A stretch of 64,000 bases of DNA from an uncultured Bacteroidales bacterium (lineage in GTDB: Bacteria; Bacteroidota; Bacteroidia; Bacteroidales; Bacteroidaceae): positions 3,722 to 67,721 of the forward strand of contig CADBXL010000029.1 in the NCBI GenBank assembly GCA_902798615.1, read 5' to 3'. Shown in pieces: positions 59,437 to 62,951 of the stretch (the stretch's first letter is position 1; each line of letters begins with the position of its first letter). The translations under genes and the position numbers were made by a program. A model generated the notes under the pieces. That model saw only the letters and a program-made list of their open reading frames with translations. It was not told the DNA's origin and searched no databases.

Positions 59437-59471
59437 ATAACCTGCGTTCCCAAAATGGGAATGCAGGTTAT
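59437..59471 (-). terminator. Terminator after the micropeptide genes
   Basis: ATAACCTGCGTTCCCA / TGGGAATGCAGGTTAT followed by TTTT on the minus strand. Confidence 0.8.
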
Positions 59472-59492: not shown

Positions 59493-59657
59493 TTATATCA
59501 CATCATCCTCATCGATAGTATCATCATCTCCCGGGTATATCGGGATATGAGAACTGTTATGCTGATCGTAAGGATCATTATTACTGCCAACGAGCAGAGG
59601 GATGCTATTCATCTGCCTTTCTACGCTAATGCCCGGCTTTGTATATTCTCTTTTCAT
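59493..59657 (-). CDS. 54-aa acidic micropeptide (absent from the ORF track)
   Basis: Hand translation: MKREYTKPGISVERQMNSIPLLVGSNNDPYDQHNSSHIPIYPGDDDTIDEDDVI. Homologous to the adjacent ORF. Confidence 0.75.
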   Translation of the reverse strand: MKREYTKPGISVERQMNSIPLLVGSNNDPYDQHNSSHIPIYPGDDDTIDEDDVI

Positions 59658-59714
59658 CAACTTCACAAGTATGTGTGCAAAATTATTTTTATTATGATTG
59701 TATTGATTATTTAA

Positions 59715-59882
59715 TTATATCACATCACCATCATCGACAATCTCATCATCATCATCATCGAATGTGCCGAATGGCTTATCGCTCAGCTGATAGATATTTG
59801 GTTTTGCGCTACTTTGTAGGAGATGATATTTATGTTTTAAATTTGCCAAGCGCATCGTTGGCTCAATATATTCCTTTTTCAT
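59715..59882 (-). CDS. 55-aa acidic micropeptide (58 aa if starting at 59891; absent from the ORF track)
   Basis: Hand translation: MKKEYIEPTMRLANLKHKYHLLQSSAKPNIYQLSDKPFGTFDDDDDEIVDDGDVI. Confidence 0.75.
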   Translation of the reverse strand: MKKEYIEPTMRLANLKHKYHLLQSSAKPNIYQLSDKPFGTFDDDDDEIVDDGDVI

Positions 59883-60023
59883 TTTCTTCATGTTTAAAGA
59901 GTGAATAGTGAATAACGAATAGTGAATAATACTTAATACTGCTATCGCCGAATGGAAACACTTCGAAATCTCATACTGGTGTCCACCAGTATTAAGTATT
60001 ATTCGTTATTCTCTATTCACTTT

Positions 60024-62951
60024 TCACTTAACTACAATCTTCTTTCCATTCTTAACGTAAATTCCAGGCTTGAGGTTATTGCCGTTAACCGCACGACCAT
60101 TCAAGTCATAGTAAAAAGATGATTCTGCATTAGCCTTGCGTAACTGACGAATGGCAGTCGTCTCATCCTCAAACACCATGCTGAACGGACGGGCATTAGC
60201 CGAAGACGAAATGGTGAAGTATGCCTTGCGAGCAGGAACATTAGTAGCCCCGAAGCTATGGAAACCGAACTTGTTGTTCTTGTTGCTAAGCATATAGAGA
60301 GTCTTGGCATCGTTAGAGGTGAGGGAAGTGCGAAGCGTAGGCTCATCCACACCGCGAAGGTCGTTCTTAACGCTATACTCAGCAGCAGAAACATCATCGC
60401 GAGTCATGCTGATGTCGTTATTCTCACTTACAATGATAACGGCAGTACCCTTTGGAATCACCTTGCCAAGCAAGTGCAAAGTAATCACGTCATCACCTAC
60501 AGTAGCGGTATAGGCACAGGCATTCTCTTCCTCATTAATACGATAGCCTGCATCGCCACAATAGAAAGAAGTCCAGTTGATATCCTCTATCAGACTGCCT
60601 TTAAGGCTGATCTCCTTCATAGGCTCCCATACAGCCGTAACGCTCACGTTCTTCTGTGGCATTTCGAACCAGTTATCCTTGATAGTAACTTCCTCGCTTT
60701 TGTAATTTACCAAATCATATCCCGCACGATTTGCTTCAAGCTTTATTCTCTCGTGCAGCTCACCCATAGTGTAGTTACTGATAGTAATGGCTTTGGTTGA
60801 TGTTATGCCATAGCCGAGATTCAGATGAAGGAGAGGCCTGTTTTCGGCGAGTATTGCATCAATAAATGGGAAATCATCCACGTCCTCACCGTAAATATCC
60901 AGTCCCGTGCTGATATCGAAGTCGCATCTTCCGGGGATTCTGCCACCACCGGTGACGCAACCTATAAATGAACCTGTGCCACTGATAGATGGATCAATAA
61001 CGGTACAATTAGTAATACTACCATTGTTATTGCCTGCAATGCCACCAAGATACGAATCGCCACTTATAGATGGAGCAATAACGCTACAATTAGTAATACT
61101 ACCACCATTGTTATTGCCTGCAATGCCGCCAATACTATTGGTGCCGCTAAAGCTTGGGGCGATAAGGGTTACGTTCTTGACAATCGAATACTTACCGATA
61201 CTGCTGAATAGTCCTACATTTCCTTCACCGCTGAATTTGAGTCCCTTTATGGTATGTCCCTGCCCATCGAATGAGAATTTTATCGAAGATAAATAAATAT
61301 CGATTGGCATGAAGTTTCCTCTTTGATTTGAAGTAATCTCACAGTCTAACGGCATATTTGTGAAGTCAAGGTCTGCCGCAAGTTTTACCTTCTGGCCATT
61401 GAGCCTTAAACTCTGTAATTCTTTGGCCAATTTAGCACCAAGATCAATTAATCCTTGCTTTTGCGAGATGACGTAGGTTGTATCATTTTCGTCAAATGAT
61501 ATGGCAATGTCATTGAAGGAAACGCGTGTGAAATCGAGTCTCTTACTGCTATTAGCTTTAATACTAAGACTAGACTTGATATTCGCCCCAATGTATTTTG
61601 TGTCTGGGTTAACTGACTTATATTTGTCGTTGACATAGAGAACGCAGTTCTTGAAGGCAGCAAAGACTTTAATCGCTGATTTTGCACCTTTAAATGCATC
61701 CTTCTCGATTATTGATAGGCTGACTGGTAGCCTGAGGGTGCCAGCCAGGTATCCTTCAAATGTACTCTTATGGATAATAGTCAGGCTTGTGCATTCACGC
61801 AAATCTATATCACCCTTGAAGCCATTGAATGCATTGGCTTTGGGAAACTTGAATTTGCTTCCTTGGGCAATGGTCAAAGTGCAGCCTTTACTGAGTTTAC
61901 TTCCCACGTTCTTAAAAGCATAGGATTCGAATCTTACTACACTGGCAGGAATGCTTATCTCTTTCAGATAAAAAGCATCGGAGAATGTGTATTGAGCGAT
62001 AGTGGCCAGGCTTGTGCATTCATGCAAATCTATGGCGCCCTTGAAGGCCTTGAATGCATTGCTTCCGATAGAAGAGAGTTTACTTCCTTGGGCAACGGTC
62101 AAAGTGCAGCCATTATCGAGTTTGCTTCCCACGTTCTCAAAAGCATTCTCTGCGATTGTCTCTACACTGGCAGGAATGGTTATCTTTTCCAAATTAACAG
62201 CACCAGAGAATGCGTATTGACCGATAGTGGTCAGGCTTGTGCATTCAAGCCAATCTATGTCGCCCTTGAATCTCTTGAATGCATAGTTTCCGATAGAAGA
62301 GAGTTTGCTTCCTTGGGCAAAGGTCAAAGTGCAGCCATTATCGAGTTCGCTTCCCACGTCCTGAAAAGCATAATCATCGATTATTTCTACACTTGCCGGA
62401 ATGGTTATCTCTTTCAGAAAATAGCCACTGGTGAATACGTATTTACCGATAGTGGTCAGGTTTGTGCATTCATGCAAATCTACGTTGCCCTTGAAGGACT
62501 TGAATGCCTCATTTTCGATAGAAGAGAGTTTGCTTCCCTGGGCAAAGGTCAAAGTGCAGCCATTATCGAGTCCTACGTACGTAAAAGCATATTTATTGAT
62601 TTGTGTGACACTTGCTGGAATGGTTAGCTCTTTCAGATTAACAGCATTGTAGAATGCCCAACTACCGATTTTACTCAAGCCTTCAGGCAATATGATTTTA
62701 TTTATTTTGGATATATAATGATGCCATGGATCTTCTCCAGGATCATAGTCATCCATATCGCCTGTACCACTAATGGTGAGCGTACTGTCGCTCGACGTGA
62801 ATTCCCATTTCAGGTTGTCACCACACGAGCCACTATCATCCGCCCATGCAGTAGCGGAGGAGAATAGCATGACGAGCAGCACGATAGCTGCACTCTTTAC
62901 TTTGCCGAGCCATGAGGCAGCCGGCATCAATGATTTAGGGGTTCTTTTCAT
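60024..62951 (-). CDS. BspA-type leucine-rich-repeat surface protein with GLUG-like repeats and a T9SS-type C-terminal domain
   Basis: Signal peptide, LxxIxIPASVxxIxxxAF repeats in four 75-aa super-repeats, GGIAGNN motifs and terminal YDLNGR...KPGIYVKNGKKIVVK. Confidence 0.88.
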   Translation of the reverse strand: MKRTPKSLMPAASWLGKVKSAAIVLLVMLFSSATAWADDSGSCGDNLKWEFTSSDSTLTISGTGDMDDYDPGEDPWHHYISKINKIILPEGLSKIGSWAFYNAVNLKELTIPASVTQINKYAFTYVGLDNGCTLTFAQGSKLSSIENEAFKSFKGNVDLHECTNLTTIGKYVFTSGYFLKEITIPASVEIIDDYAFQDVGSELDNGCTLTFAQGSKLSSIGNYAFKRFKGDIDWLECTSLTTIGQYAFSGAVNLEKITIPASVETIAENAFENVGSKLDNGCTLTVAQGSKLSSIGSNAFKAFKGAIDLHECTSLATIAQYTFSDAFYLKEISIPASVVRFESYAFKNVGSKLSKGCTLTIAQGSKFKFPKANAFNGFKGDIDLRECTSLTIIHKSTFEGYLAGTLRLPVSLSIIEKDAFKGAKSAIKVFAAFKNCVLYVNDKYKSVNPDTKYIGANIKSSLSIKANSSKRLDFTRVSFNDIAISFDENDTTYVISQKQGLIDLGAKLAKELQSLRLNGQKVKLAADLDFTNMPLDCEITSNQRGNFMPIDIYLSSIKFSFDGQGHTIKGLKFSGEGNVGLFSSIGKYSIVKNVTLIAPSFSGTNSIGGIAGNNNGGSITNCSVIAPSISGDSYLGGIAGNNNGSITNCTVIDPSISGTGSFIGCVTGGGRIPGRCDFDISTGLDIYGEDVDDFPFIDAILAENRPLLHLNLGYGITSTKAITISNYTMGELHERIKLEANRAGYDLVNYKSEEVTIKDNWFEMPQKNVSVTAVWEPMKEISLKGSLIEDINWTSFYCGDAGYRINEEENACAYTATVGDDVITLHLLGKVIPKGTAVIIVSENNDISMTRDDVSAAEYSVKNDLRGVDEPTLRTSLTSNDAKTLYMLSNKNNKFGFHSFGATNVPARKAYFTISSSANARPFSMVFEDETTAIRQLRKANAESSFYYDLNGRAVNGNNLKPGIYVKNGKKIVVK

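Follow-up and report, generated by a model that had tools for sequence, protein, structure and literature searches.

In the 64,000-nucleotide stretch analysed here (hereafter the window), which corresponds to C29:3722-67721, a contig of a 3.46-Mb rumen Prevotella genome, three successive open reading frames (ORFs) lie on the minus strand: the gene of a 975-aa leucine-rich repeat (LRR) protein at 60024-62951, followed by two small genes, p1 and p2. A preliminary description of this DNA had interpreted them as a type IX secretion system (T9SS) surface protein accompanied by two homologous acidic micropeptides. In this work, we extended that description by homology, neighbourhood and comparative genomic analyses, which indicate that p1 and p2 are genuine genes of a large peptide family recurrently paired with T9SS cargo genes, and which lead us to favour, with moderate confidence, their being precursors of RiPPs (peptides that are synthesized ribosomally and modified post-translationally) that would be matured in trans. 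The features of the locus, with the evidence for each in parentheses, are the following (CTD, C-terminal domain; HMM, hidden Markov model; pN/pS, ratio of nonsynonymous to synonymous polymorphism).

60024..62951, minus strand: LRR gene, encoding a 975-aa secreted BspA-type LRR surface protein (ORF list)
60027..60164, minus strand: short T9SS CTD of about 46 aa, ETTAIRQLRKANAESSFYYDLNGRAVNGNNLKPGIYVKNGKKIVVK (Prevotella intermedia short-CTD motifs; seed of the tail HMM)
59892..60026, minus strand: palindromic repeat element of about 135 nt, from the LRR stop codon to p1 (folding, contig depth)
59715..59891, minus strand: p1, precursor-like peptide gene (homologues, pN/pS, family HMM, RNA contigs)
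59658..59714, minus strand: AT-rich p1-p2 spacer carrying TAATTTTG (sequence, comparison of loci)
59493..59657, minus strand: p2, paralogous precursor-like peptide gene (homologues, pN/pS, family HMM, RNA contigs)
59437..59471, minus strand: intrinsic terminator closing the LRR-p1-p2 unit (hairpin and U-run)

As the preliminary description stated, both ORFs of fewer than 60 codons are present behind the LRR gene on its own strand, and the traits it listed for them (a shared MKxEYxxP start, an LLxxS element, a variable middle and an acidic C-terminus) all hold. The p1 product comprises 58 aa (MKKMKKEYIEP...), or 55 aa when read from a second ATG at 59882, which gives the family-typical MKKEY start; that of p2 comprises 54 aa from the ATG at 59657 (MKREYTKP...), a start fitting the family, or 57 aa from a GTG at 59666. 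The two have in common an MK(K/R)EYxxP start and an LL(Q/V)(S/G)S element whose serine lies 20 residues past the tyrosine. Thus divided, p1 consists of the leader MKKEYIEPTMRLANLKHKYHLLQSS and an acidic core ending in DDGDVI, and p2 of the leader MKREYTKPGISVERQMNSIPLLVGS and an acidic core ending in DEDDVI, their acidic ends being DDDDDEIVDDGDVI and GDDDTIDEDDVI, respectively. A Sec or Tat signal peptide was considered for both and rejected, the leader being charged and not hydrophobic.

Pairwise BLASTP between p1 and p2 aligns the N-terminal 28 residues only (36% identity, E=5e-4), and family profiles join the two strongly, with family HMM E-values of 5.9e-18 for p1 and 2.5e-13 for p2. Among 5.8 billion proteins, 48 close homologues of p1 and 18 of p2 were recovered, all of 46-81 aa and, where named at all, called "hypothetical protein"; Pfam and NCBIfam scans of the two peptides gave no match. 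The order LRR gene, p1 and (p2) is kept in ten syntenic loci from metagenome-assembled genomes (MAGs) of rumen Prevotellaceae and from metagenomes, with glnA on the opposite strand. Purifying selection among the homologues, whose absence would have refuted the proposal according to the preliminary description, was found in the called frame only: pairwise pN/pS values were mostly 0.1-0.35 for p1 and 0.05-0.55 for p2, and the values pooled over all pairs, 0.24 and 0.36, respectively, were the lowest of the six frames, the others giving 0.49-2.5. Furthermore, contigs of four sheep and cattle rumen metatranscriptomes cover both genes, including one of 457 nt that extends from 59429, past the terminator, to the p1 start at 59885. 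We conclude that p1 and p2 are genuine, transcribed small genes.

Sequence comparison places p1 and p2 in a large unnamed family, found in Prevotella and related Bacteroidaceae, whose peptides have about 50 residues. Searched against 1.84 billion representatives, a profile made from eight paralogues matched 204 clusters at 50% identity, with lengths of 34-103 aa throughout. Another, made from 62 sequences, matched at least 1049 clusters at 90% identity; none of the matched clusters had a Pfam or NCBIfam domain, or a name beyond "hypothetical protein". Within the GTDB family, profile matches were found in 66/151 genomes and 23/35 genera; in other families of the order, matches were limited to 3/200 genomes. 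The consensus leader spans 25 residues, M-K-K-x-Y-x-K-P-x-M-x-V-V-x-L-x-H-x-x-x-L-L-A-G-S, with M, I or V at position 10, and is followed by a core that varies, is usually acidic and has a median of 29 residues. The Y..P motif occurs within the first 30 residues of 272/282 family sequences, and in these the fifth residue past the tyrosine is M, I, V, L or F in 95%, the residue at Y+20 is serine in 90%, and the cores contain 28% D/E vs 6% K/R. Distinct core endings characterize the sub-families, namely ...DVI/DVW, ...PPNEIPDYDDWL, ...GFWGR and ...IPGxGxxxxHLA.

The preliminary description had pointed out that YxxP leader motifs are read by RiPP recognition element (RRE) domains in lasso-peptide systems, and the YxxP motif of the family is a good fit to RRE-read leaders; YIEPTM of p1 and YTKPGI of p2 are both candidate RRE-binding motifs of the type [Y/W]xxPx[L/V/I/F/A]. 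A leader that is conserved, ahead of a core that varies, and the occurrence of G-S or A-G where the leader ends might also suggest bacteriocin-like or signalling peptides whose double-glycine (GG) leader is cut after AG or GS and which are exported by a peptidase-containing ABC transporter (PCAT), independently of the enzymes described below; GG leaders and PCATs are indeed commonly used by Bacteroidales RiPPs and bacteroidetocins (PMC10352776). We consider this explanation very unlikely. By inspection, the spacing of hydrophobic residues misfits the GG-leader pattern, YxxP is a hallmark of RRE-read leaders, and no PCAT or immunity gene was found near the loci inspected, no genome-wide PCAT search having been made.

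The protein encoded upstream of p1 matches LRR_5 (E=4.1e-44), the GLUG motif and the Flg_new_2 domain of Pfam, has a partial HupY/LrrG match in NCBIfam, and begins, according to the ORF translation, with a signal-peptide-like N-terminus. Its C-terminus corresponds to the short CTDs of P. intermedia, of which 48 were reported with lengths of 40-51 residues, five of them with experimentally determined cleavage sites; these CTDs were shown to be cleaved and glycosylated, and constitute a validated T9SS signal (Ye et al. 2025, Open Biol, PMC11969387). Besides a cleavage motif that surrounds a conserved Ile, they contain motif B (Y..G then a basic residue), motif D (GxY or GxN, then Ile) and motif E, with one or two basic residues (PMC11969387). 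By inspection, the LRR tail, ETTAI...YYDLNGR...GIYV.NGKKIVVK, agrees with the cleavage-site motif and with motifs B (Y..G[RK]), D (GxY+I) and E (K..K), and the cargo tails of this genome fit all four, including the GxN variant, GFNIINGKKVIVL. TIGR04183 and PF18962 (Por_Secre_tail) gave no match to the LRR protein or to five other tails, and only the tail of one relative reached 21.6 bits; this miss is expected, because the short CTDs of P. intermedia required an HMM of their own (Ye et al. 2025, PMC11969387). Since generic CTD models do not recognise these tails, the T9SS type given to the LRR protein from the outset now rests on the published short-CTD motifs. SprA/Sov (TIGR04189), the sole T9SS component searched for in the genome, is encoded at C13:15092-22465 (2569 bits).

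As in the cargo described by Ye et al., the signal is of about 40-50 residues with the same motifs, and LRR proteins are a common cargo class there (PMC11969387). Conversely, the tails studied here come from a rumen Prevotella and were matched by motif and by a home-made HMM instead of the published one, and no downstream small genes are mentioned in that study (PMC11969387).

The pairing of peptide and cargo extends well beyond this locus. A tail HMM, built from 19 short-CTD tails with the LRR tail among the seeds, finds 55 short-CTD ORFs in the genome, all with the tail at the C-terminus, and every large protein encoded upstream of a peptide has a tail of the type ...YDLNGRxVxxxxLKPGIYIKNGKKVIIK. 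When all 28,576 small ORFs of the genome were searched with the peptide HMM, 14 family members were identified, and 12 of these lie on the same strand as, and no more than about 260 bp downstream of, a gene with a short-CTD tail, against approximately 0.3 expected by random placement. Eleven of the 12 upstream genes are among the 55 tail-HMM matches, and the twelfth (contig C18) has a variant tail below threshold; short-CTD genes make up about 2% of the genes of the genome, and about a quarter of them carry a peptide behind. The same cargo-then-peptide order was found in 19/28 loci of other genera, and metagenome contigs with unrelated flanks carry the same two-gene unit. The recurrence of the pairing in this genome, in other genera and in metagenome contigs indicates that the cargo-plus-peptide module, proposed in the preliminary description together with the HMM search and the enrichment for T9SS-CTD neighbours, is real and general. 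In our literature searches, we found neither this peptide family nor its pairing with T9SS cargo described.

The remaining two of the 14 members are located immediately upstream of paralogous lipoprotein genes, and a peptide-then-lipoprotein order was also seen in three or four of the loci of other genera, including genomes lacking SprA. The proposed tie to secreted cargo is thus upheld as an association, which is extreme, but not as an exclusive one, as some members precede lipoprotein genes and occur without SprA; the peptide module is not strictly tied to T9SS. In the two instances of this genome (C19:81914-83757 and C1:60877-62021), the family peptide either overlaps the lipoprotein gene or ends 3 bp before it, and the two lipoproteins, for which no Pfam family was found, share blocks such as FY.VVLP..INGFTL.LED. 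Among the metagenome loci, one (L054:1-6852) contains a tandem array of cargo, peptide, cargo and peptide, followed by a 125-aa protein resembling a signal peptide joined to a short-CTD-like tail; in one genome (L012:1-1671), the peptide stands behind a 279-aa protein ending in dockerin-like repeats (GDANGDGVVNVTDAV...) and not in a short CTD.

Even as RRE-dependent RiPP precursors, the peptides might stand behind cargo genes without any meaning for the cargo, through either borrowed transcription of highly expressed surface-protein genes or movement as recombining cassettes. Several traits agree with this: the cores are hypervariable and unrelated to the type of cargo (LRR, GLUG or unknown domains), the module is flanked by repeat elements and indels, family members are found ahead of lipoprotein genes too, and the clusters for paeninodin and for linear polyphosphorylated peptides (LPPs, see below) are likewise found in surface-polysaccharide loci without a known link. 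However, 12 of the 14 peptides stand behind roughly 2% of the genes, the pairing persists across genera with unrelated flanks, and random hitch-hiking would not favour one class of secretion signal; we regard a meaningless position as doubtful.

The preliminary description also stated that no maturation enzymes are encoded beside the peptides. This is true for the window; elsewhere in the genome, a kinase-like protein, a signal peptidase I (SpI)-like peptidase and an RRE are encoded together on one strand of contig C14 (C14:92559-94408). The RRE (C14:94139-94408, 89 aa) is the only strong discrete RRE of the PqqD type in the genome (PF05402, 66 bits; lasso_PqqD, 8.6e-11), with PDB matches to TfuB1, 9x8z and TbiB1, its closest solved relatives being the lasso B1 proteins TfuB1 and TbiB1. 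The other two genes of the group are placed directly upstream of that of the RRE. The kinase-like gene (C14:92559-93464) encodes 301 aa with the P-loop KSGTGKST and matches TIGR04352 (HprK-related kinase A) weakly (E=4.6e-4); its AF2 model (pLDDT 91.8) retrieves with Foldseek the PEPCK and HprK/P folds with probability 1.0, including 1knx (E=7.5e-6) and both 1jb1 and 1kkl at TM-scores of about 0.5, and by its predicted fold the protein is a putative HprK-like kinase. [quoted passage not shown] This trio is syntenic across many genera. In the loci compared (C14:91436-94408; L066-L076), it is always downstream of an rpoD-like sigma gene and of a gene for a conserved secreted protein of about 150-200 aa (KVxxTxVYMFGFSASF...).

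In a related genus, enzymes of this kind do occur next to the peptide. Genome G056 carries on one strand a 338-aa short-CTD cargo, a family peptide (MSKKGYNKPNMRIVKLQHEAHLLSGS...; family HMM E=1e-12), an NTP_transf_5 nucleotidyltransferase (PF14907, E=3e-43), an SpI-like peptidase (E=2e-25 to the C14 copy) and an 88-aa RRE (E=1e-16), this cluster being located a few kb from sprA. A G056-type order with a decayed RRE is found in genome G025, which has in addition a second peptide directly before a lipoprotein gene. In genome G015 (L090, G015:C34), an RRE, an NTP-transferase, an ABC exporter, a kinase and an SpI are encoded in one row. A side observation concerns a second kind of cluster, situated within capsule loci (L077-L089), where a glycosyltransferase, a sugar transferase, an RRE, an NTP_transf_5, an HprK-like kinase, Wza and Wzc are encoded; RRE, NTP-transferase and kinase sets of this sort occur in many genomes. 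Across the 151 genomes of the family, peptides were detected in 59/98 genomes with both SprA and the kinase, in 2/8 with SprA only, in 5/24 with the kinase only, and in 0/21 with neither; by Fisher's test, which ignores phylogeny, and with an insensitive detection of peptides, the association is p=5e-6 for the kinase and p=8e-8 for SprA.

These comparisons bear on a further explanation, according to which p1 and p2 would be unmodified small acidic cytoplasmic proteins acting on the cargo, for example as a dedicated holdase or escort that binds the lysine-rich short CTD, or the C-terminal region common to the cargo, ahead of export by Sec; the N-terminus would then be conserved as a protein-protein interface and not as a leader. 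The tight and translationally close pairing with cargo across genera would be accounted for in this way, as would the acidic cores set against basic CTD tails (...NGKKIVVK), the lack of a signal peptide and the fact that most loci have no enzyme nearby. Yet the part of the peptides that is conserved is the N-terminus, while the tail supposed to bind the cargo is hypervariable and in some cases, such as the G056 member, lacks an acidic character; moreover, some family members are encoded ahead of lipoprotein genes or in genomes lacking SprA, one is embedded in a cluster of NTP-transferase, SpI and RRE, and none of the 21 genomes devoid of both kinase and SprA has a detected peptide. An escort function of unmodified proteins is, in our view, unlikely.

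The known system that most closely resembles the proposed RRE-dependent pathway is that of the LPPs, RiPPs encoded by the lppA-K-B-S-D-N genes in Bacillota such as Paenibacillus alginolyticus (Popov et al. 2026, Nat Commun, PMC13381572). In this system, the precursor LppA carries the conserved leader YxxPxVLxHQxIxFETxxS and a variable C-terminus; the discrete RRE LppB presents the leader to the SpI-like peptidase LppS (S29/H68/D93), which cuts after T-1; the HprK-like kinase LppK polyphosphorylates S3 of the core, which is A-Q-S in LppA; LppD is an MsbA-like exporter, and LppN an NTP transferase (PMC13381572). LPP clusters sit in capsule loci, and the family has been called restricted to Bacillota (PMC13381572). 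The peptides described here likewise have a leader with YxxPx-hydrophobic, a conserved serine about 15-17 residues past the proline and a highly variable C-terminus. On the side of the enzymes, both systems have a discrete PqqD-type RRE, an HprK-like kinase and an archaeal-type SpI-like peptidase with nearly equal triad positions, S28/H67/D82 of the C14 peptidase corresponding to the catalytic S29/H68/D93 of LppS. Both are associated with cell-surface (polysaccharide) loci, and an NTP_transf_5-type nucleotidyltransferase may be a further common element.

On these grounds, the reading we prefer, and hold to be moderately probable, is that p1, p2 and their relatives are precursors recognised by an RRE, with cleavage near LLxGS and probable phosphorylation, in a pathway of the LPP-like or lasso type that acts in trans. 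The individual steps of binding, cleavage, phosphorylation and export are inferred. The RRE of C14 would bind the YxxPx-hydrophobic motif of the leader; the kinase would phosphorylate a serine, the prime candidate being the nearly invariant one at Y+20; and the SpI-like peptidase would remove the leader around LL|AGS or AGS|. The cleavage near LLxxS suggested in the preliminary description is, by comparison with LPP precursors, a plausible boundary between leader and core. Cleavage after LL would make the serine residue 3 of the core (A-G-S), like S3 of LppA (A-Q-S), and cleavage after A-G-S would agree with the usual -3/-1 rule of signal peptidases. The product may be further decorated by NTP_transf_5 enzymes from polysaccharide loci.

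The resemblance to LPPs has limits, as the present peptides come from a different phylum, with at least 14 dispersed precursors, each next to a T9SS cargo or lipoprotein gene and not inside an enzyme cluster, while no dedicated MsbA-like exporter was found in this genome and the modification is putative. A precursor inside the enzyme cluster was seen in G056 and G025, and not in this genome.

Several findings weigh against an RRE-dependent maturation in trans. The leader, YxKPxMxVVxLxHxxxLLAGS, departs from the full YxxPxVLxHQxIxFETxxS consensus of LppA, and its serine lies 17 residues past the proline instead of 15. In this genome, no peptide gene is found near the trio, the precursors being dispersed tens of kb or whole contigs away; its five NTP_transf_5 (PF14907) genes are all in polysaccharide loci and none near peptides; and a search of the genome for an orthologue of the cluster-borne ABC exporter of G015 found none. 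At the sequence level, the evidence for the kinase is weak, and PEPCK structures are its best fold matches. Among the 151 genomes, the kinase is present in 122 vs 66 with detected peptides; as it is far commoner than detectable peptides, and as the genomes are related and not independent, the co-occurrence is partly phylogenetic. In addition, in 14 other genomes with second-copy kinase clusters in capsule loci, no family peptide was detectable. Finally, the RNA contigs covering p1 and p2 speak to transcription and not to translation, may contain DNA, and carry no strand information.

Two other RiPP systems offer partial parallels. Paeninodin and pseudomycoidin lasso clusters consist of a precursor A, an RRE B1, a protease B2, a cyclase C, an HprK-like kinase and a nucleotidyltransferase, and share with the present system a discrete RRE for the leader motif [Y/W]xxPx[L/V/I/F/A] and tailoring, here putative, by a kinase and an NTP-transferase. 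They differ in that an SpI-like serine peptidase here takes the place of the cyclase and B2, and in that the present cores are acidic, long and, in all likelihood, linear. Neither a macrolactam cyclase nor a B2 cysteine protease flanks the C14 RRE, no genome-wide cyclase search having been made. Prochlorosins, on the other hand, are produced from many dispersed precursors with a common leader and hypervariable cores by a single trans-acting maturase, ProcM, through lanthionine chemistry. The two systems have in common that a single enzyme set serves numerous scattered precursors, in which the leader is conserved and the core hypervariable; the chemistry and the leader family are different, and prochlorosin precursors are not known to be coupled to secreted-protein genes.

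If the peptides are LPP-like precursors, a class of RiPPs described in 2026 as confined to Bacillota would extend to Bacteroidota, and the widespread orphan trio of kinase, peptidase and RRE beside rpoD would gain candidate substrates; further, a testable link between a modified peptide and the cell surface would be available, which might bear on the role of LPPs and paeninodins.

A real functional tie between peptide and neighbouring cargo is, at present, a tentative and rather doubtful proposition. In such a tie, the mature acidic peptide might be a partner, chaperone, inhibitor or signal for the secreted protein, as the preliminary description had suggested, or might decorate the anchoring glycan. 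A known arrangement of this kind is that of Flavobacterium johnsoniae SprB-SprF, where a cargo with a type B CTD is followed immediately downstream by its cognate PorP/SprF-like gene. There, as here, the gene of a T9SS cargo has a small, dedicated partner gene behind it, an order repeated many times per genome. PorP/SprF proteins are outer-membrane beta-barrels with signal peptides; unlike these, the peptides described here have about 50 residues, no signal peptide and a RiPP-type leader. A more specific proposal, which we consider rather unlikely, is that surface display by the T9SS of Prevotella-type Bacteroidales incorporates RiPP chemistry. Every short-CTD cargo gene would have a leader-bearing precursor of its own, from which the trans-acting RRE, kinase and SpI-like peptidase, aided by NTP-transferases of polysaccharide loci, would make an acidic phospho- or glyco-peptide; this would be exported to partner the cargo or the anchoring glycan, and the system would serve surface lipoproteins as well in species without T9SS. 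If so, each surface protein would have a co-evolving, hypervariable peptide companion. A tie to cargo that proved functional would add to type IX secretion an accessory layer so far unrecognised. The genus Prevotella is dominant in the rumen and abundant in the human gut and mouth, and its T9SS cargo includes adhesins and virulence-associated BspA-type proteins.

With regard to the organization of the transcript unit, the end of p1 and p2 at a terminator, as originally described, agrees with the computed structure: the hairpin at 59437-59471 is strong (-21.4 kcal/mol for the centroid, z=-3.84), it is followed by the U-run UUUUUAU, and one RNA contig terminates at 59429, just beyond it. An RNA contig crosses the p1-p2 spacer, which indicates that the two genes are co-transcribed, at least partly. 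The TAATTTTG box that had been proposed as a promoter element of p2 is present upstream of this gene on the minus strand, at 59678-59685, and matches the -7 promoter box of Bacteroidetes. Most orthologous loci, in which p2 begins 2 nt past the p1 stop, lack the 55-bp spacer in which it lies (absent in L039, L040, L043 and L044; about 10 nt in L046; present in L045), and one metatranscriptome contig skips this spacer. A promoter of p2's own is therefore not a conserved feature, and at this locus a separate, putative promoter for p2 is possible.

The palindromic element between the LRR stop codon and p1 (59892-60026) folds at -47.9 kcal/mol (z=-8.3). At 59900-59971 the depth of metatranscriptome contigs increases 10- to 50-fold and the contigs break, which points to a dispersed, apparently highly transcribed repeat of rumen Prevotella. 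Finally, the LRR gene itself varies in length among close relatives: the protein has 975 aa here, and its orthologues in rumen Prevotellaceae MAGs have 752-850 aa, with 752 aa in L039:1406-3664 and L040:2068-4326 and 850 aa in a third MAG, a variation that looks as if repeat blocks of about 75 aa had been gained or lost.

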